Positions 5,242 through 49,710 of a stretch of 64,000 nt of DNA are shown one piece after another. Source of the DNA: Opitutia bacterium. Lineage in GTDB: Bacteria > Verrucomicrobiota > Verrucomicrobiia > Opitutales > UBA953. The first letter of the stretch is position 1; the number at the start of each line of letters is the position of its first letter. A program made the translations under genes and the position numbers. The notes under the pieces were generated by a model. That model had not been told where the DNA came from. It searched no databases and was given only the letters and a program-made list of their open reading frames with translations. The stretch is from NCBI GenBank assembly GCA_003569165.1, contig BGOI01000005.1, positions 9,560 to 73,559 of the forward strand, written 5' to 3'.

Positions 5242-7743
5242 TCAGTCGCGGGTGATGGCGGCGTCGAGGTTGTAGAGGGCGAGGCAGGTTGCGGTGAGCG
5301 CGGCGTGTTCGGCGGCGGGGAGTGTCGCGTCGCGCTTGCTTTCGCCGATCACGAGTAGCGCCTCGGCGCCCTTGGCGTCGGCCGCGTAGACCGCGCGTTG
5401 ATTGGCGAGCATCTTGGCGATCAGGGCGGGTTCCTTGCCGGAGGGTTCACGGCCCAGCACGAGGGCGAAGGCGCGGGCGAGGCGGGCTTCGTCAGTCGTC
5501 TGCTCCTTCGTCACGCGCTGGGCGAGCATACGCGCGGCTTCGACCCAGGTCGGGTCGTTGAGCATCGTGAGCGCGTGCAGAGGCGAGGACGTCACTGCGG
5601 TGCGGACGCGGCAGGTCTGGCGCGCCGAGATGTCGAACATGTTCACCGGCGCGATGGTGCGGCGCCAGAACGTGTAGAGCGAACGACGGTAGAGGTCGGC
5701 CCCTTTCGACTGGGGGTAGGTGAAGTCTCGCTCCTTGGTGATGGCGAGGCTCTCCCATGGGCTGTCGGGGAGATAAGGGTAGACCGGCACGCCGCCGACC
5801 TGGGTGTTGAGCAGGCCGCTGGAACGCAGGGCGACGTCGCGGAGCACCATCGAGGGGAGACGCAGGCGCGGCGCGTGCGAGAGGAGTTTGTTTTCCGGAT
5901 CCTTCTGCAACTGCTCCTTGGTGACGTGGCTGGACTGGCGGTAGGTCTTGCTGGTCAGGATAACTTTCTGGAGGGCCTTGATCTTCCAGCCGGACTCGCG
6001 GAATTCGACCGAGAGCCAATCGAGCAGATCTTGGTGGGTGGGGCGGTCGCTTTGGACGCCGAGGTCTTCGGAGGTGCGCACGATGCCCTTGCCGAAGAGC
6101 TCCTGCCACTGGCGGTTGACCTGCACGCGGGCGGTCAACGGGTGTTCGGGACGGAAGAGCCATTGGGCAAGGCCGAGACGGTTCTTCGGGGCGTCCTTCG
6201 GCAGCGGCGGCAGGAAGCCAGGCGCGTCGAAGGTGACCTTCTCCTTCTTCGCGAGGTAGGCGCCGCGGTCGAGGATGTTGGTTTCACGCGGCTGGTCGTC
6301 GGCCATCACCATCACGCGTGGCAGGACGTCGCCGCGGTAGCCGTCGAGCAGCTGCTTGGCGCGGTCGAGCTTCTTCATCGCGGGGATCGTCTTCCGGTCC
6401 TCGGCGAAGACGTTCTTGTTGTAATGGTCGCGGAGCTTCTTCGTCTCGGCCGCGACGCGCTTCTTGTCGGGCGCGAGCAGGGCTTCGAGTTCCTTGGGCA
6501 GCATGCCCTTGTCCTTGGTCGGCTTGGCGAGCCAGGCTTCGAAGGCCTTGGTCTGAAGCATGGCGAAGTCTTTGTTCAGCGCGTCGAAGTCGCCCTGAAG
6601 TTTGGCGAGTTCCGCCGCTTGTTCGGGCGACGGGGCTTCGACGACGGTAGTGTCGAGGCGGAAGCGGCTACGGCCGCCGGTCTGCGTCTGGCCTCCACTC
6701 GGGGTGCCGCGCTCCTTCACGTGGTTGAAGGCATCCATCCACTGGTAATAGTCTTTCTGCGAGATCGGGTCATACTTATGGTCGTGGCACTGGGCACAGG
6801 CGACCGTGAGGCCGAGCCAGGTGGTCGTCGTGCTCTCGACGCGGTCGAAGAGGCTGACGTAACGCTGTTCCTCGGCGATGTTACCGCCTTCGCCGTTGAG
6901 GATGTGGTTACGGTTGAAGGCCGTGGCGATCTTCTGGTCGAGCGTCGCGTTCGGGAGCAGGTCGCCCGCGAGCATCTCGGTACTGAGCTGGTCGAAAGGC
7001 TTGTCTGCATTGAGGTTCTTCACCAACCAATCGCGCCAGATCCACTGGAAGGTGTCGCCGTCCTGCTGGAAGCCATTGCTGTCCGCATAACGCGAGGCGT
7101 CGAGCCACGGCAATACCATGCGTTCACCGTAGTGCGGCGAAGCCATGAGGCGATCAACCTGCTTACCGTAGGCGTCGGGACTCGCATCGGCGAGGAACGC
7201 GGTGGTCTCCTCGGGCGTGGGCGGCAGGCCGGTGAGATCAAGCGACAAGCGGCGGAGGAGCGTGGCCTTGGGGGCTTCGGGCGAGAGCTTCAGGCCGGCC
7301 TTGGTCAGCTTCTCGACCACGAAGGCGTCGACAGGGTTGGTCTCGCCGTTGGCCGGCAGGGCGGGGCGGATGGGCGCGACGAAGGCCCAGTGTTCCTTAT
7401 ACTCGGCGCCTTCGGTGACCCAGCGGCGGAGAATCTCCTTCTGCGCCGGCGAGATGGTGCGATGGGAATCCGGCGGGGGCATCACTTCGTCGGAATCGGT
7501 CGAGACGAGTCGCTTGATGAGTTCGCTGGCCTCGGCGTCGCCCGGGACGAAGGCCTTTTTTTCCAACGCCGCGGCACGGACGTCGAGGCGTAGCTTGGCC
7601 TTGCGCTTGTTGCCGTCGGGTCCGTGGCAGTAGAAGCAGTTCTCGGAAAGGATTGGCCGGACGTCCTCGTTGTAGTCCAGCTTCGCGGCGAAGGCGGGCA
7701 GGGCGACGACGAGGGCGGCGAGGATGAGGCTGATCCGGGGCAT
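5242..7743 (-). CDS. PSCyt1 / DUF1549 / DUF1553 protein (planctomycete cytochrome c domain protein)
   Basis: 833 aa. Signal peptide, CxxCH in CFYCHGPDGNKR, second CxxCH in the DUF1549 core (CAQCHDHKYDP), long DUF1553-like C-terminus. Confidence 0.85.
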   Translation of the reverse strand: MPRISLILAALVVALPAFAAKLDYNEDVRPILSENCFYCHGPDGNKRKAKLRLDVRAAALEKKAFVPGDAEASELIKRLVSTDSDEVMPPPDSHRTISPAQKEILRRWVTEGAEYKEHWAFVAPIRPALPANGETNPVDAFVVEKLTKAGLKLSPEAPKATLLRRLSLDLTGLPPTPEETTAFLADASPDAYGKQVDRLMASPHYGERMVLPWLDASRYADSNGFQQDGDTFQWIWRDWLVKNLNADKPFDQLSTEMLAGDLLPNATLDQKIATAFNRNHILNGEGGNIAEEQRYVSLFDRVESTTTTWLGLTVACAQCHDHKYDPISQKDYYQWMDAFNHVKERGTPSGGQTQTGGRSRFRLDTTVVEAPSPEQAAELAKLQGDFDALNKDFAMLQTKAFEAWLAKPTKDKGMLPKELEALLAPDKKRVAAETKKLRDHYNKNVFAEDRKTIPAMKKLDRAKQLLDGYRGDVLPRVMVMADDQPRETNILDRGAYLAKKEKVTFDAPGFLPPLPKDAPKNRLGLAQWLFRPEHPLTARVQVNRQWQELFGKGIVRTSEDLGVQSDRPTHQDLLDWLSVEFRESGWKIKALQKVILTSKTYRQSSHVTKEQLQKDPENKLLSHAPRLRLPSMVLRDVALRSSGLLNTQVGGVPVYPYLPDSPWESLAITKERDFTYPQSKGADLYRRSLYTFWRRTIAPVNMFDISARQTCRVRTAVTSSPLHALTMLNDPTWVEAARMLAQRVTKEQTTDEARLARAFALVLGREPSGKEPALIAKMLANQRAVYAADAKGAEALLVIGESKRDATLPAAEHAALTATCLALYNLDAAITRD

Positions 7744-10899: not shown

Positions 10900-10900
10900 A

Positions 10901-11175
10901 GCGCCCTCGCGAGGGGACACGTGGGCACGTTGACACGTGGACAAGGGGGACAAAAAGTTGACCCGTTGATCAGTTGGCCGGTTGGCCAGAGGGAATGAAG
11001 GTAGGGGCGCCACTGCGTGGCGTCCGTTCGCGGTGGCATGTGGGTAATGAGTCCGGTCTTGGCTAAGACCCGATGACTTCTGGCTTCGGTCTCAAACGGA
11101 CGCGACGCAGTCGCGCCCCTACCCAAGGCAGCTGTCAACCGCCACCCGCCACCCGGGGCTGCCACCCGCCACCCG
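10901..11175. repeat. Composite repeat block: C, inverted D, A2 REPIN-like doublet, inverted E
   Basis: GCGCCCTCGCGAGGGGACACGTGGGCACGTTGACACGTGGACAAGGGGGA (10901-10950). Inverted CAACTGGCC-type module (10956-10989). GTAGGGG doublet (11001-11122). CCGCCACCCGCCACCCGGGGCTGCCACCCGCCACCC (11139-11175). Confidence 0.85.
11001..11122. repeat. REPIN/MITE-like doublet: two inverted GTAGGGGCGC(C/G)ACTGCGT(G/C)GCGTCCGTT arms around a 66-nt spacer
   Basis: Left arm is GTAGGGGCGCCACTGCGTGGCGTCCGTT. Right arm is AACGGACGCGACGCAGTCGCGCCCCTAC. A second doublet with the same arms but an unrelated spacer lies at 33490-33602. Confidence 0.85.
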
Positions 11176-11279
11176 AGAATGGGTGCGTGAGGACGGCACG
11201 TGGTACTATTCCTACCTCTATGCAAGCAAACCACTTGCCCGCGTGTCACGGCACCGGCACCTCCTTCGCCGTCACCGGA

Positions 11280-11633
11280 CTATGGGCCCTCGCCGAGGTA
11301 CCACAAGTACAACAACAGGAGTCCGCAGAACGATACGAACAGCTGGAGCAGGAGACTTCCGATGATGCAGAGCCAAAACGGGACTGGTTTTGGGCGGAAG
11401 TTAGCGACGGAGAAGCGGACGTTGAGTGCCATCAAGACGCACTGGGCGATGATCAGGCAAACGGCAGACAACCCGGGGCGCTCTCTTGTCGGCATGAGTG
11501 ACCAGAAAATGAATGGTGCCGCCACATTGAGCGTGCCCCACTCGGCCAGCAGCCGATACCAGCGGGAAGGTTTGCCTGTCTCAGGCGTCGTGGATGCGGA
11601 GGCAGGTTGGACGCCCGGAGGTTGGCTGGACAT
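11280..11633 (-). CDS. Hypothetical small membrane protein (117 aa)
   Basis: Three hydrophobic helices (LNVAAPFIFWSLM, GLSAVCLIIAQCVLMAL, FWLCIIGSLLLQLFVSFCGLLLLYLWYL). C-ending codon preference like neighbouring genes. No family recognised. Sits alone inside 1.1 kb of repeats. Confidence 0.45.
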   Translation of the reverse strand: MSSQPPGVQPASASTTPETGKPSRWYRLLAEWGTLNVAAPFIFWSLMPTRERPGLSAVCLIIAQCVLMALNVRFSVANFRPKPVPFWLCIIGSLLLQLFVSFCGLLLLYLWYLGEGP

Positions 11634-11690
11634 GAATCAAGCGTGGCCCCATGTTTCGGCCTGGCAATCAACGGTTAAGAGACCGTGTTT

Positions 11691-12027
11691 GGCGCCCTCG
11701 CGAGGGGTAAGTGGGCAAGGTGACACGTGGACAAGGGGGATTAACTCAAAGGGAGACTGGGAGCCGGATGTGATTCTGCGGGCATTGGTTAGGGCGGGCT
11801 CTCCGAGCCCGCCGTTGAGCCGGATGAGGTGCGAAACTCTCGTGACGAACGGACGGCTCGGAGAGCCGTCCCTACCTGCGAAGGCTTCGCCTTCGAGGGG
11901 ACATGCTGGCAAGGTGACACGTGGGCGCGGGGAATTGTATCTCCCTCGCCAACTGGCCAACCAATCAACTGGTCAACTTAGTTGCCCTCTGGCCCACGTG
12001 TCACCGTGCCAACTTGCCCCCTTACCC
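11691..12027. repeat. Composite repeat block: C, half B, GTTAGGG/CCCTAC doublet, C, D, inverted C
   Basis: C at 11691-11740. GGGAGACTGGGAGCCGGA at 11745-11769. Doublet GTTAGGGCGGGCTCTCCGAGCCCGCC ... GGACGGCTCGGAGAGCCGTCCCTAC at 11788-11875. C at 11878-11933. CAACTGGCCAACCAATCAACTGGTCAAC at 11949-11978. Inverted C at 11985-12027, abutting the dapB stop. Confidence 0.85.
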
Positions 12028-17347: not shown

Positions 17348-17491
17348 GGGGGTGGTTAAGGGGTGGGGGTAGGGAGAGGGGTAGGGGTAGGGACAACAGG
17401 AGGCAAATGGATTTCGGAAAATGGCTTTCTGATTCTACCTACGCTCTTGGGTTGAATCTCCTATCCCCACCCCTATCCCTACCCCAACCCC
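17348..17491. repeat. Inverted pair of (GGGGTA)n-type G modules in a divergent promoter region
   Basis: GGGGGTGGTTAAGGGGTGGGGGTAGGGAGAGGGGTAGGGGTAGGG (17348-17392) and CTCCTATCCCCACCCCTATCCCTACCCCAACCCC (17458-17491). The C-rich strand faces each flanking start codon. Confidence 0.85.
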
Positions 17492-17499
17492 TAAAGCAT

Positions 17500-25040: not shown

Positions 25041-28000
25041 ATGTCCGCCGCCTTCCCTCATTTTCGTTGGCTGACCCGTCGTTGCCTTATCTTGGCGGCG
25101 GGGTTGGTCTCTGCCGCCTCCTGGGCGCAGGAGAACGAGAAACTCACTTACGACGACCACATCCGGCCGATGCTCGAGAACAAGTGCTTCTCCTGCCATA
25201 ATCCTGATAAGAAGAAGGGCGGCCTCGAACTCACCAGTTATGCTGGTCTCATGAACGGCGGCAGTGGCGGCGCGGTCGTTGACGCGGGTAATCCTTCCGG
25301 TAGCCGACTCTGGACCTGTAGCACGAAGAAGGAAGAGCCTTTCATGCCGCCGGAAGGCGCACCGCTCGAACCTAAGGATCTCGCGATGCTCTCCAAGTGG
25401 ATCGAGGGCGGCGTACTCCAGGCCAAGGGCAGCGTGGCCAAGGCTTCCAATAAGCCTAAGGTCGACCTTTCTTTCGCTGGCGGCGCCGGTAAGCCCACCG
25501 GCGCGGTGGCCCGTCCCGAAAACGTGTTGCTCGAGCCCGTCATCGTGACGCCGCGTACTTCCGCGGTCATCGCCATGGCGGCGAGCCCGTGGACTTCACT
25601 CCTCGCCGTCGCCGGACAGAAGCAGATTCTCCTCTACGACACCGACTCGCACGACCTCGCAGGCATCTTGCCCTATGCTGAAGGTTATGCCCGCTCGCTG
25701 AAATTCAGCGCCAACGGCTCACTGCTCATCATGGGCGGCGGTCGCGGTGGCAAAATCGGCCACGCCATCGTCTGGGACGTCAAAACGGGTAAGCGTGTTA
25801 CCGAGATTGGCAAAGAGTTCGACCAGGTGATGTCGGCCGACATCTCGCCGGACCATGGCAAGGTCGTCCTCGCTACCAACACCAAGAAGGTGAAGTGCTT
25901 CGACGTCGCTACGGGCGAGCAGCTCTACCTAATCGCCAAGCACACCGAGTGGGTGACCGGCGCCGACTTCAGTCCGGACGGCATCCTGCTCGCGACCTCT
26001 GACCGCAACGGCAACGTCTATGTCTGGGAAGCCGATAACGGCGGCGAATTCTACAATCTCGGTCAGCATAAGGGCAGCGTCACCGACCTCGCTTGGCGCG
26101 CCGACTCCAATATCCTCGCCAGCTGTTCTGCGGACGGGATCATCACCACTTGGGAGATGAAGACCGGCAAGCAGGTCGCCACTTGGGGTGCCCATGGCGG
26201 CAACGTGCAGTCTGTCTCCTTCTTGCCTGACGGCCGCCTGATTTCGTGCGGAGCCGACGGTACCACCGCCATGTGGAGCGTCGACGGTAAGCGACTCGAG
26301 CATGCTCAGGGGATCAAACAGGCTGACCAAGTTGCCAAGGTCGTCGGACTCCACGACTCCAAGACCTTCGTCTCCAGCAACTGGTTGGGTGAGGTCCGTT
26401 TCTTCGAGACCGCAACCGGTCGCGAGATCATCCAGGTCTCCAGCAATCCTGTTAAGATCTCCGACCGCATGGTCGCACTCGAGAAGCGCCTGAGCGAACT
26501 CGAGCCGGTGCTCGCGCCCTCCGAGGCTGCTGCGAAGGTCGCTGAAGCCAAGATTCCTGCCGCCGAAGCCGTTTTGGCTAAGCTTAAAGCCGAAGGCGAA
26601 CCCGCTTCGAAGAAGCTCGCTGAACATGAGGCCAAGAACACTGAGGTCACCAACGGCCTCAAGTACTGGCAGGGTATGAGGACCAAGGCGAAGACTGCTG
26701 CGGAAACGGCGACCGCCGCCAAGGGGATTGCCGACTGCCGCAGCGGCCTGACTTATCACGGCCAAGAAATCGCCAAACTGAAGCCCGCCGCCGGTGCGTT
26801 CCGCGCCGCCGAAGCGGAGGTTGCTAAAGTCCGGACCGAACTCGCCTCCGCCCAGGCCAAGGCGCGCGATGTCGCCGCTGAGATCGCCGCCCATCGCGAA
26901 CGCATCGTCTCCCTTAAGGCCGCCCAGTTCAATGTCGGCGTCCTTACCGAGCAGGATAAGCTGGCCAAGCTCGAGCAGGATATCGCCGACCTCGTGGCCG
27001 CCAAGGCTGAGAACGAGGCCGCTAAGGTGACCGCCGCAGCCCGCATTGAATCGTCAAAGAAGACTGCTGCCCAGAACGAGCAGCTGATTCCGAAGCAGCA
27101 GGCGGAGCTCGAAGCGCTCAAAGCCGAATTCACCGCGCTCGACAAGACCCTGTCGCCATTGCGCCTGAGTGAAGCTGAAGCCCTCGGCAAGATTGAGGCC
27201 CAGCAGAAGCTCATCGACGCTCAGTCCGAGGCCATCGTGCGCCTAGGCCAGGATCGCGACGCCATCGTGGCCGTCGCCACCGCCGCTGCCGCCGCTTACC
27301 GCGATCAATATACCACGCCGCTCCGCGCCCGCCTCACCGAGGCCACCGCCAAGGTCGACGAACTGAAGAAGGTCGCCGACACCGCAAAGGTCGCCGCTAC
27401 CAAGGCGAAGGCCGCCGTCGCGGACGCAGTTTCGAAATCGAAGGGGCTCGCTCTCTCCTCCGTCAAGGCCGCCGATGAGGCTAAGCAGGCCGGGGTGAAC
27501 CTCGCCGCGGCCGATAAAGCCTTCGGCGAAGCCCGCACTTTCGGTGCCGTCTTCTCCTTTAGCTACTTCTCTCGCAAGAAGCAGACCGAGCAGCAGGTCA
27601 CCGAGGCCAAGATCGCGCATGCGAAGGCCAAGGCAAGGCAGGGCATCGCCGACCAGGAGCTCGTTGCGGCCAAGTCCGTCGAGCAGACCCTCCTCGCCAC
27701 GCAGGCCGCCGCTGATGCCGCGGTCGTCGCCGCTGACAACGCGGTCGCGCCCGCCGGTGTCGCCGTGGCCGCTATCGCCAAGGAGCGTTCGATGCATCTC
27801 GCCGAACGCGAGAAGCTCGCCGCCCCCGGCGTCGCCGCCGAGAAGGATTACGCCGCTAAGCTGCCCGCTCTCCAGGCTTCCGTACAGAAGGCCAAGGAGG
27901 GTCTCCCGGTGCTCGAGAAGGCGCTTGTCGCCGTCCGGGTCCAGTTGACCGAAGCCGGCAAGCCCGTCGAGGCTAAGCGTCTCCTCGTGGATGCCGCCGC

Positions 28001-28217
28001 GAAGACCCTCGAGCTCACCAAGAGCGAGAAGGCCAACGCTGAGAAGGCGCTCGCCGCCGCCCAGAAGGATATCCCGCAGCGCGACAAGAACCTCGAGGAG
28101 ATCGCCCAGTCTTACGCCGAACTCACCCCGCAGGTCGAACCGATGAAGGCCAAGGTCAAGGCCGCGCAGGAGCAGTATTTTGCGATGCTGCCCAAGCGTG
28201 AAGTCGCGAAGAAGTGA
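25041..28217 (+). CDS. PSCyt1 cytochrome-c-like domain + WD40 beta-propeller + ~590-aa Ala/Lys/Glu-rich helical region (operon gene 4)
   Basis: 1058 aa. Signal peptide. CFSCHNPDKKKGG. WD40-like blades (GHAIVWDVKTGK, SDRNGNVYVWEA, SADGIITTWEMKTGK, GADGTTAMWSVDG). From about residue 475 (nt 26463) the sequence is low-complexity helical. Confidence 0.8.
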   Translation: MSAAFPHFRWLTRRCLILAAGLVSAASWAQENEKLTYDDHIRPMLENKCFSCHNPDKKKGGLELTSYAGLMNGGSGGAVVDAGNPSGSRLWTCSTKKEEPFMPPEGAPLEPKDLAMLSKWIEGGVLQAKGSVAKASNKPKVDLSFAGGAGKPTGAVARPENVLLEPVIVTPRTSAVIAMAASPWTSLLAVAGQKQILLYDTDSHDLAGILPYAEGYARSLKFSANGSLLIMGGGRGGKIGHAIVWDVKTGKRVTEIGKEFDQVMSADISPDHGKVVLATNTKKVKCFDVATGEQLYLIAKHTEWVTGADFSPDGILLATSDRNGNVYVWEADNGGEFYNLGQHKGSVTDLAWRADSNILASCSADGIITTWEMKTGKQVATWGAHGGNVQSVSFLPDGRLISCGADGTTAMWSVDGKRLEHAQGIKQADQVAKVVGLHDSKTFVSSNWLGEVRFFETATGREIIQVSSNPVKISDRMVALEKRLSELEPVLAPSEAAAKVAEAKIPAAEAVLAKLKAEGEPASKKLAEHEAKNTEVTNGLKYWQGMRTKAKTAAETATAAKGIADCRSGLTYHGQEIAKLKPAAGAFRAAEAEVAKVRTELASAQAKARDVAAEIAAHRERIVSLKAAQFNVGVLTEQDKLAKLEQDIADLVAAKAENEAAKVTAAARIESSKKTAAQNEQLIPKQQAELEALKAEFTALDKTLSPLRLSEAEALGKIEAQQKLIDAQSEAIVRLGQDRDAIVAVATAAAAAYRDQYTTPLRARLTEATAKVDELKKVADTAKVAATKAKAAVADAVSKSKGLALSSVKAADEAKQAGVNLAAADKAFGEARTFGAVFSFSYFSRKKQTEQQVTEAKIAHAKAKARQGIADQELVAAKSVEQTLLATQAAADAAVVAADNAVAPAGVAVAAIAKERSMHLAEREKLAAPGVAAEKDYAAKLPALQASVQKAKEGLPVLEKALVAVRVQLTEAGKPVEAKRLLVDAAAKTLELTKSEKANAEKALAAAQKDIPQRDKNLEEIAQSYAELTPQVEPMKAKVKAAQEQYFAMLPKREVAKK

Positions 28218-28221
28218 TGAA

Positions 28222-28440
28222 GGGTAGGGTTAGGGGTAGGGGTTGGGGTAGGTAATATTGGCAGGGACAGCACCACGTGCTGTCCTTGCTTGTTTGGGTA
28301 GGGTCGGGACCGCGTCACGACATAGCCTTTCGTTTCGGGTGGCGGGTGGCAGCCCCGGGTGGCAGGTGGCGGGAATAGTTTGAGCAGGGAAGGGTGGTTT
28401 GACTCAACCACCCCCAACCCCTACCCCTATCCCTACCCCT
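28222..28440. repeat. Composite repeat block: G, A4 hairpin, A3, E, inverted G
   Basis: GGGTAGGGTTAGGGGTAGGGGTTGGGGTAGG (28222-28252). GGACAGCACCACGTGCTGTCC (28265-28285). GTAGGGTCGGGACCGCGTCACGACATAG (28298-28325). GGGTGGCGGGTGGCAGCCCCGGGTGGCAGGTGGCGGG (28337-28373). CCACCCCCAACCCCTACCCCTATCCCTACCCC (28408-28440). Confidence 0.85.
28265..28295 (+). terminator. Likely intrinsic terminator of the four-gene operon (the A4 repeat hairpin)
   Basis: GGACAGCAC-CAC-GTGCTGTCC followed by TTGCTTGTTT, 48 nt after the stop at 28217. Confidence 0.6.
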
Positions 28441-28447
28441 GATAACA

Positions 28448-29677
28448 ATGCTCTCCCGTCGTCGTTTCTTGGAATCTACTTTTGTCGCCGTCATCGCCGC
28501 TTCACTCGGTGCCGCCGAAGGTAAGCGCGCCCCGCGCGTGGTGCTGCGTTCCTCTTGGCAGACGGTGAACATCGGCGACATCGCACACACGCCTGGGATG
28601 CTGGCCCTGCTCGAGAAGTATTTCCCGGAGGCCGTGATCACCCTCTGGCCGAGCAATGTCGACAATGGCGTGAAGGAGATGCTGGCGGCCCGCTTCCCGA
28701 AGTTGCAGTTCGTCGGCCCCAAGACCGACGTCGCTAAACTCTACGCCGAGAACGATTTCCTGCTGCACGGCTCAGGCCCTTCGCTCGTGGGCGAGAAGCA
28801 GGTCGCGCTGTGGCGCCAGCAGGGCCCGAAGCCCTATGGCGTCCTCGGCATCACCCAAGGGAGCCCGTCGTCCGAGACGGCCAAAATCCTCAGCGGTGCG
28901 CAATTTGTTTATTTCCGTGACTCGGTCTCGCTCGCGACTGCTAAGGCCGCTGGCGTGAAGTGTCCGGTGATGGAGTTTGGTCCGGATGGCGCGTTCGCGA
29001 CCGACCTACGCAGTGAGGAGAAGGCTGAGGCTTTCCTGCATGGATGGGGCCTCGAGCGTGGTAAGTTCCTCTGCTGTATTCCGCGTTACCGCATTACGCC
29101 CTATTGGACGATTCACAAGGAGCGCGCCTTTGATCCCGTGAAGCAGAAGCGTAACGACGAGATGAAAGAGCACGATCATGCGCAACTACGCGCCGCAATC
29201 GTCGCGGTCGTGAAGCAGACCGACCTCAAGGTGCTGATTTGCCCCGAAGACCGCACCCAGATGACCTTGGGCAAAGAGATCCTTTTCGATAAGTTACCCG
29301 ATGACGTGAAGGACCGCGTCGTCTGGCGTCAGGACTACTGGCTGACTGACGAGGCGCTGAGCGTCTACGTCCGCAGTGCGGGTCTCTTCGGTAACGAGAT
29401 GCATTCGCCCATCATGTGCGTCGGTAGCGGCATCCCCGCCATTGTCTGCCGCTGGTCCGAACAGACCTCCAAGGGCAACATGTGGAAGGACATCGGCCTG
29501 AATGAGTGGCTGTTCGACCTCGATGACGAACCGCAGCTCGCGGGCATCGTCCCGGCCGTGCTCGCCATGGCCAAGGACCCCGCCGCTGCGAAGGCCAAGG
29601 TCGTCAAGGCCCAGGCTATCCTGCACGAACGTCAGTCCGCCGCGATTGGCCGCGTCCGGAAGGGTGTCGGCGCCTAA
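28448..29677 (+). CDS. Polysaccharide pyruvyl transferase family protein with a twin-arginine-like leader
   Basis: 409 aa. MLSRRRFLESTFVAVIAASLGAAEG leader. WQTVNIGDIAHTPGMLALLEKYFP N-terminal block, typical of PS_pyruv_trans as I remember it. Confidence 0.55.
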   Translation: MLSRRRFLESTFVAVIAASLGAAEGKRAPRVVLRSSWQTVNIGDIAHTPGMLALLEKYFPEAVITLWPSNVDNGVKEMLAARFPKLQFVGPKTDVAKLYAENDFLLHGSGPSLVGEKQVALWRQQGPKPYGVLGITQGSPSSETAKILSGAQFVYFRDSVSLATAKAAGVKCPVMEFGPDGAFATDLRSEEKAEAFLHGWGLERGKFLCCIPRYRITPYWTIHKERAFDPVKQKRNDEMKEHDHAQLRAAIVAVVKQTDLKVLICPEDRTQMTLGKEILFDKLPDDVKDRVVWRQDYWLTDEALSVYVRSAGLFGNEMHSPIMCVGSGIPAIVCRWSEQTSKGNMWKDIGLNEWLFDLDDEPQLAGIVPAVLAMAKDPAAAKAKVVKAQAILHERQSAAIGRVRKGVGA

Positions 29678-33279: not shown

Positions 33280-33306
33280 TTTGTTACCAGCTAGAAGGTG
33301 CATCAA

Positions 33307-33639
33307 AGGGAGGGCGGGGGGTGGGTCAAGGGAGATTAAAGGGAGGACTCGAGGGCCCGAGGGCCGGAGGGCCAGAGGGGTTGATTCGTTGATCAGAGGG
33401 CCGGGTGGCTGGAAAGGGGGTGGGTGGGGGTAGTTTTGTTGATCGGTTGTTCAGAGGGCCAATTGGCCGGTCTGGAGGCCAAAGAATGGGTAGGGGCGCG
33501 ACTGCGTCGCGTCCGTGGGCGGACGGATTTGGGAATACGCAAAAGCTTGCCCGAATCAGGCAAGCTAAGAGGCGAACGGACGCGACGTCGTCGCGTCCCT
33601 ACCAAGAGACAGAGGACAGCACGTGGTGCTGTCCCTACC
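33307..33639. repeat. Composite repeat block: G-rich/F, degenerate D, A2 REPIN-like doublet, A4 hairpin
   Basis: GAGGGCCCGAGGGCCGGAGGGCCAGAGGGG (about 33351-33380). GTTGATCAG / GGCCAATTGGCC D-like words (33381-33475). Doublet at 33490-33602. GGACAGCACGTGGTGCTGTCC (33614-33634) abutting the glnS stop. Confidence 0.85.
33490..33602. repeat. REPIN/MITE-like doublet (second copy of the A2 arms)
   Basis: GTAGGGGCGCGACTGCGTCGCGTCCGT ... AACGGACGCGACGTCGTCGCGTCCCTAC. The spacer is unrelated to the 11001-11122 copy and holds its own 8-bp hairpin AGCTTGCC-CGAATCA-GGCAAGCT. Confidence 0.85.
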
Positions 33640-35335: not shown

Positions 35336-36700
<1,365 letters not shown>

Positions 36701-36710
36701 GGGCGAAATA

Positions 36711-36817
36711 GAGGGATGGAGGGCTGGAGGGCCGGAGGACCAGAGGAGGGCCTGAGGGCAGGCGGGCCGGAAGGGAAGGCGTAAAGGGGTCAGGGGGCAG
36801 GGCAAGAAGGGAGGGAC
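36711..36817. repeat. F-type (GGAGGGC/GGAGGAC)n purine-rich block in the gltX leader
   Basis: GAGGGATGGAGGGCTGGAGGGCCGGAGGACCAGAGGAGGGCCTGAGGGCAGGCGGGCCGGAAGGGAAGG... The C-rich strand is the sense strand of gltX. Confidence 0.75.
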
Positions 36818-36837: not shown

Positions 36838-36864
36838 AAAAAAGGACAGGGGTGAGCCTGTCCT
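36838..36864 (-). terminator. Intrinsic terminator of the ppiD-like gene
   Basis: Minus-strand RNA: AGGACAGG-CUCACC-CCUGUCCU followed by UUUUUU. Lies 23 nt after the stop at 36887. Confidence 0.8.
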
Positions 36865-36886
36865 TTGATCGGCCTCGTGGGAGGCC

Positions 36887-39086: not shown

Positions 39087-39330
39087 GAGGGGGCACGTGC
39101 GCAAGGTGACACGGGGACATGGGGAAGGCTGAACTCAAAGGGAGACCGGAAACCGGAATGTATGCTGCGGACATTTTCCCCGCTAATTATCCGATTTCCG
39201 GTCTCCCTTTGAGTTTTGTCTCGAGGTAGGGATGACCATCCTTGGTCGGCCGCGGTCGAGCAGGGATGCTCGACCCTACCCGATGCAGCACTGTCGTGAC
39301 GCGGTACTGCCCCTACCTCGTCCTTGCCCC
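39087..39330. repeat. Composite repeat block: C, B inverted pair, inverted A1, A3-like
   Basis: GGGGGCACGTGCGCAAGGTGACACGGGGACATGGGGA (39087-39125). CTCAAAGGGAGACCGGAAACCGGA ... TCCGATTTCCGGTCTCCCTTTGAG (39134-39213). Inverted A1 (39226-39279). TGTCGTGACGCGGTACTGCCCCTACC (about 39291-39317). Confidence 0.85.
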
Positions 39331-40772: not shown

Positions 40773-40796
40773 CTTTACGCGAACCAGTTCGCGAGG

Positions 40797-40974
40797 GATA
40801 GGGACAGGGGTAGGGTTGGGTAATATTGGTAGGGTCGAGCATCCCTGCTCGACCGCGGCCGACCAAGGATGGTCGGCCCTACCTCGAGATAGAACGCAAA
40901 GGGAGACTGGGGACCGGATGATTGGCTGGGGTGCATGGCCGCAGCATTCTTTCCGGTTTCCGGTCTCCCTTTGC
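40797..40974. repeat. Composite repeat block: G, A1, B inverted pair
   Basis: GGGATAGGGACAGGGGTAGGGTTGGG-TAATATTGG (40797-40829). A1 at 40829-40882. GCAAAGGGAGACTGGGGACCGGA ... TTTCCGGTTTCCGGTCTCCCTTTGC (40896-40974) abutting the MFS stop. Confidence 0.85.
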
Positions 40975-40975
40975 T

Positions 40976-42244
40976 TTAATTAACGGACGTTTCCTGCTCC
41001 TGCTCACCCGTCACCTTACTACCGACGGTGAGCATGACGATGAAGCCGATGATCGCATAGCAGATCGAGGAGCCGAGCAGCACGTTACGCAGCTCGAAGA
41101 GATCCGTCATCACGCCCATGATGATCGCGGCGAAAGGCAGGAAGCCAAAGAAGCTTAGGCCAGCGACGGCCGACACGCGGCCGCGCAGTTCGGCGGGCGA
41201 ACGTTCTTGTACGATGGTGTTGGCCAGGCCGACAAGCGTCGAGACGCCGACCGCAAGGCAGACGAGCGAGACACCCGCCCAGATCAGTTCGTGCGACTGG
41301 CTGAGGCTGACGAGCGCACCGCAGGCGAGGACCATGCCGATGAGAATGGCGATGCGGCGCAGACTAGGGCGCAGGGCCATGATGAGGAGCGAGCCGGACA
41401 CCGAGCCAAGGCCGGAGCAAAGCATCAAGAGGCCCATCTGCTCCGGCGTGGCGTGGAGGTCGTTCTTCGCGTAGAGTGGCAGCAGGACGATGATGACCGG
41501 GAAGACGAAGAGGGTATTGGTGGCGAGGAGCGCGACCATCGCGAGGCTGGGCTTGTCCTGACGGACATGGCGGAAGCCTTCGCCCGCGCCGCCTTGGCGC
41601 TTCTGTTCTTCCTCGACGGTGCCCTGCGGTCGTCTGGGCAAAGTAGCCAGTGCGCCCATCAGCGCCAAGAAAGAGGCTGCGTTCAGATAGAAGGCCCATT
41701 CGGCGCCGTAGCGACCGACGAGATAGCCCGCGGCGGCCGGGCCGACAAGCCGGGTGGCGTGGAAGACTGCGCGGTCGACCGAGATGGCTTTAGCAACGTT
41801 TTCCTTGGCGACGAGTTCGGGGACGATCGCCGCGGCGGCGGGCATCTCGAAAGAACTGGAGACGCCCAGCAGGGCTGCGGCGACGATGAGATGCCAGGTG
41901 TGCAAAGACCCGTGGGCAATGAGCTGACCAATCGCGAGGGCGAAACCAATCTGCGCGATCTGGCAGACTTGCAGGATGAACCGTTTGTCGTGACGATCGG
42001 CACACGCCCCGCCGAAGCGGAAGAGTGCCAGCATGACGAGACCGCTCGCGAGGTGCGGCGCCGCCTGCAGCAATCCTTCGTAGTTTTGTAATCCATCGCG
42101 GACCACGACTTCGGTCATCACCCAGCCGAGTGCCATGCCCTGCATCCAGGTGCCTGTCATGGAGATCCCTTCGCCGACCATGTAGCGCGTGAACGGCCCG
42201 TTCGGGAAACGTTCAGCGGTAGGACTGGTGGAGGGGGAGGACAT
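40976..42244 (-). CDS. MFS transporter (EntS/MFS_3-like)
   Basis: ATG 42244 (MSSPSTSPTAERFPNGPFTRYMVGEGISMTGTWMQ). About 12 TM helices. The upstream 35 aa of the ORF-track model lie in repeat sequence. Confidence 0.75.
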   Translation of the reverse strand: MSSPSTSPTAERFPNGPFTRYMVGEGISMTGTWMQGMALGWVMTEVVVRDGLQNYEGLLQAAPHLASGLVMLALFRFGGACADRHDKRFILQVCQIAQIGFALAIGQLIAHGSLHTWHLIVAAALLGVSSSFEMPAAAAIVPELVAKENVAKAISVDRAVFHATRLVGPAAAGYLVGRYGAEWAFYLNAASFLALMGALATLPRRPQGTVEEEQKRQGGAGEGFRHVRQDKPSLAMVALLATNTLFVFPVIIVLLPLYAKNDLHATPEQMGLLMLCSGLGSVSGSLLIMALRPSLRRIAILIGMVLACGALVSLSQSHELIWAGVSLVCLAVGVSTLVGLANTIVQERSPAELRGRVSAVAGLSFFGFLPFAAIIMGVMTDLFELRNVLLGSSICYAIIGFIVMLTVGSKVTGEQEQETSVN

Positions 42245-42306
42245 CGGTCGGCAAAATTGAGGACATTGGCTTAAAGAGCAAAGGGAATGGTGTTGGTTTG
42301 CTGCGA

Positions 42307-42523
42307 GGTGGTAGCGGTTGGCGGTTGTGTAAGGTGAAAGGCCAGGCACTGCCTCGGAAAATTCAGGTGGCGGGTGGCAGCCCCGGGTGGCGGGTGGCAG
42401 GCCGTTGCGAGGCGCGATGCAGTCGCCTCAAACGGTTCTATGTCGTGACGCGGTCCCGACCCTACCCATCCAATGCAGGCTTCTAGGCTAGGTTTTCATC
42501 CTAGCCGCCAACCGCTATCCGCT
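42307..42523. repeat. Composite repeat block: inverted H, E, A2-like hairpin, inverted A3, H
   Basis: GGTGGTAGCGGTTGGCGGTTG (42307-42327). GGTGGCGGGTGGCAGCCCCGGGTGGCGGGTGGCAGG (42365-42400). GAGGCGCGATGCAGTCGCCTC (42408-42429). CTATGTCGTGACGCGGTCCCGACCCTACCC (42439-42467). GCCGCCAACCGCTATCCGC (42506-42523). Confidence 0.85.
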
Positions 42524-42524
42524 A

Positions 42525-43232
42525 TTACCTTTTATATGCCGCTTCGGTCGCCTTCCAGGCGGCGTCGACGGCGGGCTTCAGCACGGAGGCGATGGCCTTG
42601 TAGCCTTCGACGTCGGGGTGGAGGTTATCCTTGAGGTAGCTGCCGGGCTTGCCCTCTCCGTTCGGCAGGTTGAGCGCGACGTTGATGTCCACGTACCAGA
42701 GATTTTTTCCTTCCTTCACGATTTGTTCGAGCTGGCGGTTATACTCGTCGAGCAGAGGCCATTTGGCTTTGCGTGAAGGGGCGCGGGTGGTGGCCACGAA
42801 GACCACGGCACAATCAGGGTTCTCCTTGCGTAGGCGCGCGAGGTATTCGCGGATGCGCGCAATGGGTGCTTCGGCCGGGTCGCCGGAATTGATATCGTTA
42901 CCGCCGCACTGGAAGACGACGACGCGCGGATGGTAAGGCAGCGTGATGCGGTCCATATAGCCGAGGACCTCGGTCGTGAAGGAGCCTCCGAAGCCGCGGT
43001 TGATCACCGGGTAGGGCTTCATCTCCTCGCCGACGTTCTTCCACATGCGCAGGGTGCTGGCGCCGGTGAAGAGCAGGGCATGCTGAGGCGGCGGGTTGGC
43101 CTTATCGGCGGCTTCGAAGGCGGCGATGTCCTTGGCCATGCGCAGCGGCTGCTGGGCTAGGGGAATGTGGGGTTTGGCGACGTCGGCCGCGAAGGCGGAA
43201 ACGGCGAGAAGGCAGGCGAGGAGGGCTTTCAT
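42525..43232 (-). CDS. SGNH/GDSL-type hydrolase, secreted
   Basis: ATG 43232 gives MKALLACLLAVSAFA. LLFTGASTLRMW, NRGFGG and FQCGGNDINSG blocks. The long N-terminal extension in the ORF track is translated repeat DNA. Confidence 0.7.
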   Translation of the reverse strand: MKALLACLLAVSAFAADVAKPHIPLAQQPLRMAKDIAAFEAADKANPPPQHALLFTGASTLRMWKNVGEEMKPYPVINRGFGGSFTTEVLGYMDRITLPYHPRVVVFQCGGNDINSGDPAEAPIARIREYLARLRKENPDCAVVFVATTRAPSRKAKWPLLDEYNRQLEQIVKEGKNLWYVDINVALNLPNGEGKPGSYLKDNLHPDVEGYKAIASVLKPAVDAAWKATEAAYKR

Positions 43233-43239
43233 TTTGAAA

Positions 43240-43485
43240 GGGGTAGGGGTGGGGGTAGGGGTAGGAAAAGACAGGGAGGGGAGGAGGGCAAGGTAATGGA
43301 GGGCACGAGGGCCGGAGGACAGGAGGACACGAGTGCCGGAGGACACGATGACACGAGTGCCAGAAATTGTCGGATAAAACAGGTCAGTGGTCGGAAATCG
43401 TGAACCTTCACATCCGCGTTCTCTGGCCCTCGTGGCATCCGGTCCTCGTGCCCTCGCTTGACTAACCGCCAACCGCTATCCGCAG
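43240..43485. repeat. Composite repeat block in a divergent promoter region: G, F, inverted F, H
   Basis: GGGGTAGGGGTGGGGGTAGGGGTAGG (43240-43265). GGAGGGCACGAGGGCCGGAGGACAGGAGGACACGAGTGCCGGAGGACACGATGACACGAGTGCC (43273-43362). TCTGGCCCTCGTGGCATCCGGTCCTCGTGCCCTCGC (43419-43456). CCGCCAACCGCTATCCGC (43463-43485). Confidence 0.85.
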
Positions 43486-43553
43486 ACACCGTTCGTGGCT
43501 TTTGGCTTTCCTCTGTCATCTGTCATCGGTCATCTTCATCTATCTTCCCACCC

Positions 43554-48470: not shown

Positions 48471-49408
48471 CGGCTGATGGCTCCAGTGCAGAGGTGAAGG
48501 ACGGCCATGCGGACGGCGACGCCGTTCCGGACTTGTTCGAGGATGACCGAGCGGGGGCCGTCGGCGACTTCGCTTTCGACTTCGACGCCGCGGTTGATGG
48601 GGCCCGGGTGCATCACGATTGCCTCGGGCTTAAGCCAGGCGGCGCGTTCGGCGTTGAGTCCGAACTGCGAGGTGTATTCGCCGAGCGAGGGGAAGTGGGT
48701 GGTCGTCTGGCGTTCGTGCTGGATGCGCAGGAGCATCACCGCATCGCAGTCCTTCAGGGCTTCCTTTAGGTCATGGACGATGCGGACCTGCGGGAAGGCT
48801 TCCTTCAGCGAGGCCGGGACAAGCGTCGCGGGACCCGCGAGGGTAACCTGCGCGCCGAGCTTCGAGAGGCATAGGATGTTGGAGCGGGCGACGCGGCTGA
48901 AGAGGATGTCGCCGAGGATCGTGACCTTAAGGCCTTCGACCTTGCCGAAGCGCTGCCGGAGTGTGAAGGCGTCGAGCAGGGCCTGCGTCGGGTGTTCGTG
49001 GGCACCGTCGCCGGCGTTGATCACCGAGATGTCGAGGACTGAGCCTAGATAGCGGGCCGAGCCGGCGGAGGAGTGGCGCATCACGATCGCGTCGACGCCC
49101 ATTGCGCGGATGTTCATCGCCGTGTCGCGGAGGGTCTCGCCCTTCACGAGCGAGGAGGCCGTCGTATTGATCGAGACCACTTCGGCGCCGAGCTTCTTGG
49201 CCGAGATTTCGAAGGCCGTGCGGGTTCGCGTGCTCGGTTCGAGGAAGAGGTTCACCACCGTGCGGCCCTTCATCAGGTCGAGGCCCTTGCCTGGCGCGAG
49301 CGCGGGCAAGAACTGGTCGGCTTGGCGGAAGAGCAGTTCGATCTCGGGGCGGGAAAGCTCCTCGATGCCGGTCAGGTCTTTTTTCGTCCAGGTGTCTTGT
49401 GAGGCCAT
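48467..49408 (-). CDS. pyrB: Aspartate carbamoyltransferase catalytic subunit
   Basis: ATG 49408. LFLEPSTRTR, HEHPTQALLD, MHPGPINRG. Its stop overlaps the pyrC start by 4 nt. The upstream 66 aa of the ORF-track model are translated repeats. Confidence 0.9.
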   Translation of the reverse strand: MASQDTWTKKDLTGIEELSRPEIELLFRQADQFLPALAPGKGLDLMKGRTVVNLFLEPSTRTRTAFEISAKKLGAEVVSINTTASSLVKGETLRDTAMNIRAMGVDAIVMRHSSAGSARYLGSVLDISVINAGDGAHEHPTQALLDAFTLRQRFGKVEGLKVTILGDILFSRVARSNILCLSKLGAQVTLAGPATLVPASLKEAFPQVRIVHDLKEALKDCDAVMLLRIQHERQTTTHFPSLGEYTSQFGLNAERAAWLKPEAIVMHPGPINRGVEVESEVADGPRSVILEQVRNGVAVRMAVLHLCTGAISR

Positions 49409-49493
49409 GCGGTGAGGTTCCGGTGGCCCTAACGAGGTTAGGACCATTGGGAAAGTGCGGAGGCACGGCCCTTGGTCAAGGATTAGCGTCATG

Positions 49494-49710
49494 CGAGGGC
49501 TCGAGGATAGGAGGACACGAGGGCCGGAGGGCAGGAGGACCCCAGAATATGAGGGCACGAGGGCCTGATTATAAGAGGACCGGAGGGCAGGTTGGCCCGA
49601 GGGCACGAGATAATGCCACAGCGTGACCTCCTATGGCCCCAATCTGTGTAGCTCTCTAACTCATGTCTCCCGCCCTCGTGACCACGAGTCCTCGGGTCAA
49701 CGGGCCCTCC
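49494..49710. repeat. F-type repeat block with inverted arm (pyrB leader / trpA trailer)
   Basis: CGAGGGCTCGAGGATAGGAGGACACGAGGGCCGGAGGGCAGGAGGACC..GAGGGCACGAGGGCC..GAGGACCGGAGGGCAGG..CCCGAGGGCACGAG (49494-49607). Inverted arm CTCCCGCCCTCGTGACCACGAGTCCTCGGG..GGGCCCTCC (49667-49710). Confidence 0.8.

Follow-up and report, generated by a model that had tools for sequence, protein, structure and literature searches.

Several families of short intergenic repeats known from bacteria share features with the block considered here, which fills the 230-nucleotide (nt) spacer at positions 28218-28447 of a 64,000-nt stretch of a freshwater Opitutales genome, that of an Opitutia bacterium (assembly GCA_003569165.1, contig BGOI01000005.1, positions 9,560 to 73,559; the whole stretch is called the window below). 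Pneumococcal BOX elements (boxA-boxB-boxC) and the Correia elements of Neisseria are modular and intergenic, have complementary ends that can form a long stem, and affect the expression of neighbouring genes. The block loosely resembles them in being modular, intergenic and bounded by complementary terminal modules; BOX and Correia elements are, however, mobile units with fixed ends, whereas here the ends are variable arrays that often stand alone and the internal modules recombine freely. The heptamer arrays of heterocystous cyanobacteria, known as short tandemly repeated repetitive (STRR) sequences, were reportedly described by Mazel et al. in 1990. They too are said to be dispersed intergenic arrays of ~7-nt units falling into several families, but they occur in another phylum and consist of other units, the likeness being a loose one, and we know of no orientation rule relative to gene ends described for them.

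The block at 28218-28447 is a long-lived mosaic in which GTAG-tagged hairpins of a system of repetitive extragenic palindromes (REPs) and REP-associated tyrosine transposases (RAYTs) are combined with tandem arrays of 6-8 nt units. The closest described systems are GTAG REPs, REP doublets forming hairpins (REPINs) and bacterial interspersed mosaic elements (BIMEs) with their RAYTs (PMC3733652; PMC3337134). In most GTAG families the head-to-head (HH) dimer, with GTAG outside, is the privileged arrangement, and Opitutus terrae shows strong enrichment for GTAG repeats (Di Nocera et al. 2013, PMC3733652). Like these, the hairpin modules of the window are short palindromes outside genes whose GGTAGGG head is unpaired. 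HH dimers are frequent among them, they cluster in mosaics and lie mostly downstream of genes, and RAYT-like Y1_Tnp genes flanked by such a REP are found in relatives. Unlike REPs, the elements at spacer edges are not palindromes but tandem arrays with units of 6-8 nt, mostly unpaired and mostly away from REPs. Moreover, the arrays have a near-absolute orientation to gene ends, which was not found reported for REPs, and the blocks are kept at orthologous loci. Literature searches on Opitutae intergenic repeats and on Verrucomicrobia G-quadruplexes turned up no orientation rule of arrays relative to gene ends. The REP class is already known; judged against these systems, the strict orientation rule of the arrays appears to be what is new.

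According to this rule, arrays next to the 3′ end of a gene, read in the sense of that gene, are G-rich, and arrays next to its 5′ end are C-rich. The earlier note had drawn the rule from the window alone, and reading each spacer reproduced it in 9/9 cases at 3′ ends and in 10/10 at 5′ ends; its claim that the window holds no counter-example was borne out as well, there being no wrongly oriented outermost module among the named spacers. Related loci were fetched with the 19-nt core of module E, an internal module of the block, in a scan of one genome per species, which returned at least 115 stretches, nearly all from freshwater Opitutales/Opitutae metagenome-assembled genomes (MAGs), in at least 30 species-level bins. 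Here and below, counts of arrays, skew and folds in related loci refer to the window plus 115 loci (L001-L115), all chosen for carrying module E; orthologues among them inflate the raw counts, and figures with orthologues collapsed are given beside them. Genes in the related loci were called with a codon-score open reading frame (ORF) caller trained on these data, and results at 3′ ends are independent of start-codon choice. For the test of edge arrays, Tandem Repeats Finder (TRF) arrays with a period of 5-9, an absolute GC skew of at least 0.4 and a distance of at most 60 nt from a gene end were used. When orientation was tabulated over the whole sample, 3′ ends gave 56 G-rich and 2 C-rich cases, and 5′ ends gave 85 C-rich cases and 1 G-rich in gene sense.

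The 9/9 and 10/10 cases of the window do not constitute 19 independent tests of a rule tied to gene sense. At each spacer edge it is the strand running 5′ to 3′ from the gene into the spacer that is G-rich, and the rule amounts to one bit per edge. On either strand, about 60 nt entering a spacer from a gene are G-rich, and about 60 nt leading out of it into a gene are C-rich and G-poor. Stated for the plus strand, the left edge of every spacer is G-rich and the right edge C-rich, a statement that reverse complementation leaves unchanged. Among window spacers of at least 100 nt, the left end was G-richer than the right in 18/19 (p = 7.6e-5). When spacers of 100-900 nt were scored for the G-richness of their left and right ends on the plus strand (n=248), the same polarity was found in 230 of them, in 182/198 after orthologues had been collapsed (p = 8e-37), and in 127/142 of the spacers without an E core. 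It is present in all four gene arrangements: 72/78 spacers between two minus-strand genes, 50/50 between divergent genes, 69/78 between two plus-strand genes and 39/42 between convergent genes. Because the rule is true in all four, it is uninformative on gene orientation. As a control, 50 kb of annotated E. coli K-12 sequence showed no polarity (10 vs 14).

The rule is strict at the borders of genes. At 3′ ends its strictness is alike in tandem (27:3) and convergent (22:2) spacers, the median distance to the gene end being ~20 nt. Deeper inside spacers, beyond 60 nt from a gene end, arrays follow it weakly (109:55), and the orientation of the module E core within spacers is weakly polar (57:30). 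Unpaired edge arrays keep the rule as well, 30:5 at 3′ ends and 49:1 at 5′ ends, and two of the five unpaired 3′ exceptions are artefacts, one caused by a nearby tRNA absent from the gene list and the other a chance match in Streptomyces. A complementary partner was found for 38/120 edge arrays, while 82/120 have no complement anywhere in their own spacer (score 13.9 vs 13.2 for local shuffles). A hairpin lies within 45-60 nt inward of 42/118 arrays, and a GTAG head accompanies 39/118. With 82/120 arrays unpartnered and only about one third beside a REP head or hairpin, palindromic architecture is not the cause of the rule.

Other origins of the bias were considered and set aside. Leakage of C-rich coding strands through wrongly placed gene starts is ruled out by the 3′ ends, which are defined by unambiguous stops and are G-rich, the opposite sign. 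In-situ slippage of locally skewed sequence is unlikely as the sole origin of the arrays, because identical unit families occur at many unrelated loci. That the arrays are mere extensions of the GTAG heads of REPs was rejected, since only about one third adjoin a head. Transcription-coupled mutation bias cannot orient dispersed repeat families, and the sign of the trailer is opposite to that of the gene body.

The composition of leaders and trailers differs in its dependence on modules. On the sense strand, the last 20 nt before start codons have C at 0.41 and G at 0.17 (skew -0.43), and the last 60 nt have C at 0.37-0.41 and G at 0.17-0.22. In spacers without any module k-mer the leader skew is -0.23 (32 negative, 9 positive), and operon-internal spacers of 8-30 nt show leader skews of -0.24 and -0.36 in their two halves. 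C-rich, G-poor leaders are general in the clade and independent of modules. The trailer skew is +0.23 (175:31) with module k-mers vs +0.10 (18:11) without, and no G-rich trailer was found after stop codons in short operon-internal spacers; the G-rich trailer depends on modules. Coding strands carry more C than G (0.353 vs 0.296). A Shine-Dalgarno (SD)-like core lies upstream of 40/461 genes (9%), and the related isolate IMCC26134 is on a list of SD-scarce organisms (PMC10783764). Among the called genes, C occupies position -1 in 63% and position -2 in 56%.

One option raised in the earlier note was that such leaders load Rho in the manner of Rho utilization (rut) sites. As far as composition goes, this agrees with the leaders found here: rut sites and C>G Rho regions, and also G-poor SD-independent leaders, are likewise C-rich, G-poor and pyrimidine-rich over tens of nt. 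Unlike rut sites, which are unstructured stretches of about 70-80 nt at which termination depends on Rho, the spacer edges show the identical composition on the antisense strand at 3′ ends, and any role of theirs in loading Rho is putative.

The spacer at 28218-28447 illustrates how such borders are built. It follows a plus-strand gene for a PSCyt1 and WD40 β-propeller protein (25041-28217, Pfam and ORF list; TGA stop at 28215-28217) and begins, 4 nt past the stop codon, with the G-rich A array, or G-arm (28222-28252), in which hexamers (GGGTAG/GGGGTA/GGGGTT)n form five G-runs (TRF period 6, 5.2 copies). Units of the G-arm include TTAGGG and TTGGGG, the telomere repeats of vertebrates and ciliates, respectively, an identity that is probably a coincidence of G-run arrays. 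The linker TAATATTGG (28253-28262) joins the array to a REP head, and an identical junction is found at 40821-40830; the direct repeat D8 pairs 28226-28266 with 40794-40834 at 83%. It leads into a GTAG-type REP hairpin, GGCAGGGACAGCAC-CAC-GTGCTGTCC, with the pyrimidine- and U-rich tail TTGCTTGTTT (28260-28297), which is near-invariant in six orthologues. The hairpin proper (28264-28285) with its tail is a weak candidate for an intrinsic terminator, and probably that of the WD40 gene; its paralogue at 33611-33638, on the minus strand straight after the glnS stop, was terminator-like by scan.

The second half of the spacer begins with another GTAG-tagged module, GGGTAGGGTCGGGACCGCGTCACGACATAG (28297-28325), which forms the inverted repeat I13 with 42438-42473 (94%). 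Module E follows (28335-28372); it consists of four GGGTGGC heptamers around AGCCCC, is invariant in six orthologues, and matches 11139-11176 and 42363-42398 at 97% (inverted repeats I7 and I9). E is an internal module and occurs in both orientations, and an exact 26-mer is common to its three window copies. The core conservation of E across at least 115 stretches and at least 30 species-level MAGs is unusually strong for a dispersed non-coding element. Next comes a small hairpin, GGTGGTT-TGACTC-AACCACC (28393-28412), which carries TTGACT at 28399-28404; TTTGACTCA is invariant and the hairpin arms are nearly so in six orthologues. The C-rich A array, or C-arm (28412-28440; hexamers (CCCCTA/CCCCAA/TCCCTA)n, five C-runs, TRF period 6, 4.8 copies), keeps 5-6 C-runs in all six orthologues and terminates 7 nt ahead of the ATG at 28448, the start of a plus-strand gene for a polysaccharide pyruvyl transferase (28448-29677, Pfam). 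No clean direct repeat of the kind left by target-site duplication was seen at the borders of 28218-28447. In the window and the related loci, TTGAC(T/C/A) peaks 30-50 nt upstream of start codons, and the TTGACT at 28399-28404, 44 nt upstream of the ATG, is invariant in six orthologues. The C-arm as the body of a promoter, in the form TTGACT-N17-TAnCCC, was tried and rejected, as its -10 is poor and its distance from the ATG is not kept at other loci.

The block is syntenic in five other species (loci L087, L059, L025, L095 and L066), which together with the window give the six orthologous spacers. Across its core (28253-28406), the five orthologous spacers have 92-99% identity to the window. 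The flanking genes are 82-99% identical to the window overall (96-99% in L087), and their third codon positions are 63-83% identical in four orthologues and 92-97% in the closest relative, L087. The spacer core thus outconserves the synonymous sites of its flanking genes, which upholds the view in the earlier note that these blocks are not neutral junk. The unit sequence of the arms evolves fast (GGGGTA, GGGCTA, GGGCCA), but G- or C-runs are retained. The G-arm of L087, L025 and L066 has shrunk, with only 3 G3+ runs in the 45 nt past the stop, of which one in L087 is part of the adjacent REP head. Other orthologous spacers swap modules, and even arm families, with the polarity kept. In particular, the ruvA/dapB spacer of L070 is 265 nt long, with F arms and E and without an ORF, whereas that of the window is 1128 nt long, with B arms and an extra ORF; the M42/rhodanese spacer differs in L103, L111 and L098. 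By comparison with miniature inverted-repeat transposable elements (MITEs), complementary terminal arms occur in ~8/12 window blocks and in 38/120 edge arrays overall, and no presence or absence of whole units was seen between relatives, the orthologues differing by module swaps.

We propose that repeats spread at the level of DNA and that their orientation is filtered by composition requirements at gene borders, a tentative reading to which we assign a probability of about 0.42. REPs would multiply by RAYT-type transposition, and arrays by slippage or recombination; in this SD-scarce clade with C-rich mRNAs, copies beside genes would persist only in the orientation that fits two requirements. 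The first would be for G-poor RNA leading into the start codon, with little structure and few upstream AUG, GUG or UUG triplets. The second would apply where a transcription unit ends and would call for G-rich, C-poor RNA after the stop codon, beside the terminator hairpin yet distinct from it. Complementary arms, and hence a big stem, would arise only where one family happens to occupy both edges. The polarity, its generality and independence from pairing, the REP-RAYT link, the conservation and the general G-poor leaders are observations; we infer both that the filter is selection on expression and what each composition would be for.

Several points count against orientation filtering. It is only a presumption that the arrays are present in RNA, and any reason for a required G-rich, C-poor 3′ trailer would be conjecture. 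The TTGACT upstream of the pyruvyl transferase gene could be a -35 box, in which case leaders would be very short and the C-arm mostly promoter DNA. Part of the core's high conservation could be due to gene conversion among copies instead of purifying selection. The gene calls in the loci are our own, and the loci were picked by module E, although polarity still holds in spacers without E. Finally, the rule is almost as strict at 3′ as at 5′ ends and involves one set of array families at both, a hint that one orientation-blind principle, not two requirements, may be at work. Such a principle could be a code by which every RNA that exits a spacer would begin with a G-poor, YC-rich tandem array, an "exit ramp". 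Where a start codon comes next, the ramp would act as an SD-independent leader; otherwise, in antisense RNA or convergent read-through, it would load Rho and lead to termination. The G-rich arrays past stop codons would then be the complement of antisense ramps. Being one principle, it would make the same families equally strict at 5′ and 3′ ends, paired or alone; we nevertheless regard a code of this kind as distinctly unlikely.

The filtering proposal leaves the pairing of the two arms as incidental, whereas the earlier note made it central: in a read-through RNA, the G-arm and the C-arm would pair into an insulating or terminating stem that sequesters the region before the next start codon. 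The arms at 28218-28447 do suit such a stem, since 28214-28253 and 28407-28446 are complementary at 85% over 40 nt (inverted repeat I12), and folding of the spacer RNA gave an outer stem of ~30 bp (-119.7 kcal/mol, z -4.9). Units of the GGGCTA type occur in both arms of L059, L095 and L025, where 21-28 arm pairs are retained, and arm complementarity is commonest in convergent spacers (10/42). Two thirds of the edge arrays, however, lack a partner and still abide by the rule. An outer stem is predicted in 4/6 orthologues (21-29 pairs); of the other two, L066 has 8 arm pairs and L087, the closest relative, has 0. The unit types of the arms match in L059, L095 and L025, but not in L066 or L087. 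Compensatory covariation of the arms in the six orthologues gave no clean signal, the arrays not being alignable by column.

Nor does the pairing look like that of a sense transcript. Transition mismatches between co-directional arms would leave 16 G:U pairs in the sense RNA vs 28 in the antisense RNA, which shows no sense wobble bias, and the fold of the spacer's antisense strand is no weaker than that of its sense strand (z -7.2 vs -4.9). Complementary arms are also found in the divergent spacers 17348-17499 and 43233-43553, where one transcript cannot contain the two. Behind the C-arm comes TGATAACAATG and no U-tract, so the arm-arm stem is without the U-tract that directly follows the GC-rich hairpin of an intrinsic terminator. 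The large stem as the central mechanism is therefore highly improbable; it is an occasional outcome of one family at both edges, not the conserved feature. Scans with a consensus terminator (11 matches vs 14.5 expected) and a consensus sigma-70 promoter showed no enrichment. A sense-specific excess of wobble pairs (76 vs 30) does exist in local hairpins close to 3′ ends, and it stems from ordinary non-REP hairpins (51:13; REP-type 25:17). About one third of the ordinary non-REP hairpins are T-tailed (T-tails 28:5), and these hairpins behave as true terminators.

The hairpin modules belong to a known class: by their defining sequence features, the GGTAGGG-headed hairpin modules are to be classed as GTAG-tagged REPs. 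Imperfect palindromes of 20-40 nt are confined to the hairpin modules (e.g., 28264-28285, 1044-1099, 11001-11029 and 33487-33516), and the GGTAGGG heads provide the unpaired GTAG at one end. HH dimers with GTAG outside were found at 1044-1099, 39225-39280, 40828-40883, 11001-11123 and 33487-33603. In 162 kb of non-coding DNA there are 528 copies of GGTAGGG/CCCTACC (3.3 per kb), vs 64 in 623 kb of coding DNA (0.1 per kb), a 32-fold difference in density; within spacers the motif is 3:1 polar. The arms, in contrast, are direct tandem repeats of 6-8 nt and do not have the palindromic hairpin that is the unit of REPs and REPINs. Searching by tblastn with E. coli RayT turned up RAYT-like (Y1_Tnp) genes in L017, L105 and L048, and none in the window; those of L017 and L105 have a copy of the same GTAG REP on each side. 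The L017 gene (ORF 101-568; Y1_Tnp 29.2 bits, cut-off 23) has GGTAGGGTTGAGCGCCCTCGCTCAACC on both sides (flanks 11-37 and 566-660) and beyond it come an HH dimer, module E and two arrays, (GAGTATC)n and (CTTTGCAC)n. That of L105 (ORF 391-891) scored 21.6 bits, below the cut-off, and is flanked by GGATGACCGGGCCGGTCATCCCTACC; the L048 gene lies at about 6400-6850.

This system invites the explanation that the rule is a pure by-product of REP/REPIN/BIME architecture, in which HH dimers leave a G-arm on the left and a C-arm on the right, lone arrays are remnants, and the borders have no function. GTAG REPs with flanked RAYT genes exist in the clade, HH dimers are privileged in most GTAG families, and O. 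terrae is rich in them (PMC3733652). REP heads face outward 165:80, and a G-rich 5′ arm is peculiar to REP-type hairpins (184:16; other hairpins 93:104). Polarity that is near-perfect at the edges and weak inside is also what strings of HH dimers would give. The arrays, however, are stricter (98%) than the REP heads (about 67-75%), show no trace of a partner in 82/120 cases and stand beside a REP head or hairpin in only about one third. They are not palindromic, C-rich leaders are also present where there is no module at all, and the strong conservation of blocks across species speaks against neutrality. A by-product of this kind is, on balance, unlikely.

Orientation filtering also has to be set against a barrier made by G-quadruplexes (G4s) or R-loops, by which G-run arrays, in DNA or nascent RNA, would stall incoming RNA polymerase or replication at gene borders. 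Canonical G4 motifs (at least four G3+ runs, loops of 1-7 nt) have a density of 0.75 per kb in non-coding DNA vs 0.074 per kb in coding DNA, a 10-fold enrichment, and at spacer edges 61 lie in the polarity of the rule vs 6 in the opposite one. The G-arm of the window contains a textbook (G3+N1-7)4 motif at 28222-28248, found by G4 scan, with another on the other strand at 28411-28439, and its G-runs stay while the bases between them change. Yet many array families abide by the rule without G3 runs (GCGGTTG, GAGTATC, GATGACA, GTTGATCG and GTGCAAAG), and the G-arms of L087, L025 and L066, with only 3 G3+ runs near the stop, do not form the motif, the C-arm being the constant partner. We therefore hold a barrier to be very unlikely. 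Within genes of the window and the related loci, G4 motifs lie on the antisense strand 36:10.

The window as a whole has a G+C content of 63.5%. Its genes identified by Pfam include those for the M42 peptidase, rhodanese, ruvA, dapB, the WD40/PSCyt1 protein, the pyruvyl transferase, glnS, gltX, folA, an MFS transporter, two SGNH lipases, DUF5069, pyrB and trpA, and ARAGORN found three tRNA genes. In a search of the window with Rfam 15, only tRNAs exceeded the gathering score; at permissive E-values, the region 28150-28500 gave merely chance matches to miRNA-precursor hairpins (E 0.08 and 0.7). About a dozen window spacers are assembled from recurring modules. The array families comprise A (GGGGTA hexamers), E (GGGTGGC heptamers), F (GCGGTTG heptamers) and the octamers B (GGACACGT, with CAACTGGC octamers inward) and D (CGAGGGCC); the second type of module consists of hairpins with a GGTAGGG head, frequently in inverted dimers.

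The remaining blocks are described in the order of the window, with coordinates on the plus strand. Between the M42 peptidase and rhodanese genes (953-1187; inverted and direct repeats, TRF), a B octamer G-array (953-989), a module (991-1039) and the REP HH dimer 1044-1099 are followed by a C array (1115-1143) and a B C-array (1150-1187). Two B-armed blocks, 10914-11262 and 11704-12020, lie either side of ORF 11280-11633 (together 10914-12020) and contain REP HH dimers (11001-11123 and 11778-11876) and an E module in C-rich orientation (11139-11176). The ORF encodes 117 aa, has no Pfam match and sits between near-identical B-arm heads (10900-10950 and 11690-11740) that are ~790 nt apart; in its sequence layout, the arrangement looks like a repeat-mediated insertion or duplication. 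In a divergent spacer, an A-type G-array (17359-17393) at the 5′ end of a minus-strand propeller gene is partnered by a C-array (17460-17493) 8 nt ahead of the DUF1080 ATG. The block at 33300-33638 has unpaired D-type G-arrays (33350-33379) upstream of the minus-strand tRNA-Ser, the REP HH dimer 33487-33603 and the terminator-like REP 33611-33638 past glnS. Unpaired D-type G-arrays (36711-36815) form the C-rich leader of the minus-strand gltX, whose ATG was called at 36700, and a canonical terminator for the next minus-strand gene lies beyond them at 36838-36870.

Past folA (39088-39317), a B G-array (39088-39126) precedes a module pair (39127-39220), the REP HH dimer 39225-39280 and a REP (39289-39317). 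The block past tRNA-Arg (40794-40973) comprises an unpaired A G-array (40794-40822), the REP HH dimer 40828-40883 and an inverted module pair (40888-40973). F heptamer arms, G-rich at 42308-42328 and C-rich at 42505-42524, enclose E (42363-42398) and a REP (42438-42473) in a block (42308-42524) with orthologues in L050 and L057. The divergent spacer 43239-43541 contains an A G-array (43239-43265), a D G-array (43299-43361), a D C-array (43421-43459), an F C-array (43461-43485) and (TCTGTCA)n (43512-43541). The last, a pyrimidine-rich heptamer array, follows the F C-array and precedes the start codon of DUF5069; units related to it (GATGACA and GATGTCA) are found after 3′ ends, G-side-in, in L078 and L084. 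D octamer G-arrays (49494-49610) form the leader of the minus-strand pyrB, and a D C-array (49667-49710) lies past the minus-strand trpA.

In several of these blocks the longest ORF of the adjoining gene extends into the C-rich array, namely, for gltX (36700-36805), the MFS gene (42244-42349), pyrB (49408-49606) and the SGNH gene (43232-43346). Codon score, the start positions of Pfam domains or a start codon at the array edge place the true starts at or downstream of the arrays: the gene caller gave gltX 36700 and MFS 42244, and reading from sequence gave pyrB at or before 49494 and SGNH 43232. In the automatic annotation of such genomes, N-termini would tend to be over-extended into repeats. 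The exact pyruvyl transferase of the window is encoded in just one public contig (L117, Logan DRR333373, 2.9 kb), which begins ~100 nt upstream of the gene, so that the spacer and its strain-level arm variants are not covered; its start would fit assembly breakage at these repeats. Contigs with the Opitutales E core are also filed under unrelated MAGs, as in L029 and L078 (a Polynucleobacter MAG), L016 (an Akkermansia MAG) and L088 (an Asaia MAG). They are probably mis-binned short, repeat-bounded contigs.

The repeats would account for assembly breaks at these spacers, and their polarity could be of use in placing gene limits and start codons in Opitutales MAGs. If the rule reflects function, nearly every border of a transcription unit would be marked by cheap, fast-evolving arrays in which only the identity of the G-rich strand is fixed. 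It would then offer a sequence handle on the choice of start codons without SD sequences, on the confinement of transcription to genes and on the taming of REP-type repeats, and this handle would serve an uncultured, SD-scarce lineage whose promoters, leaders and terminators are essentially undescribed.

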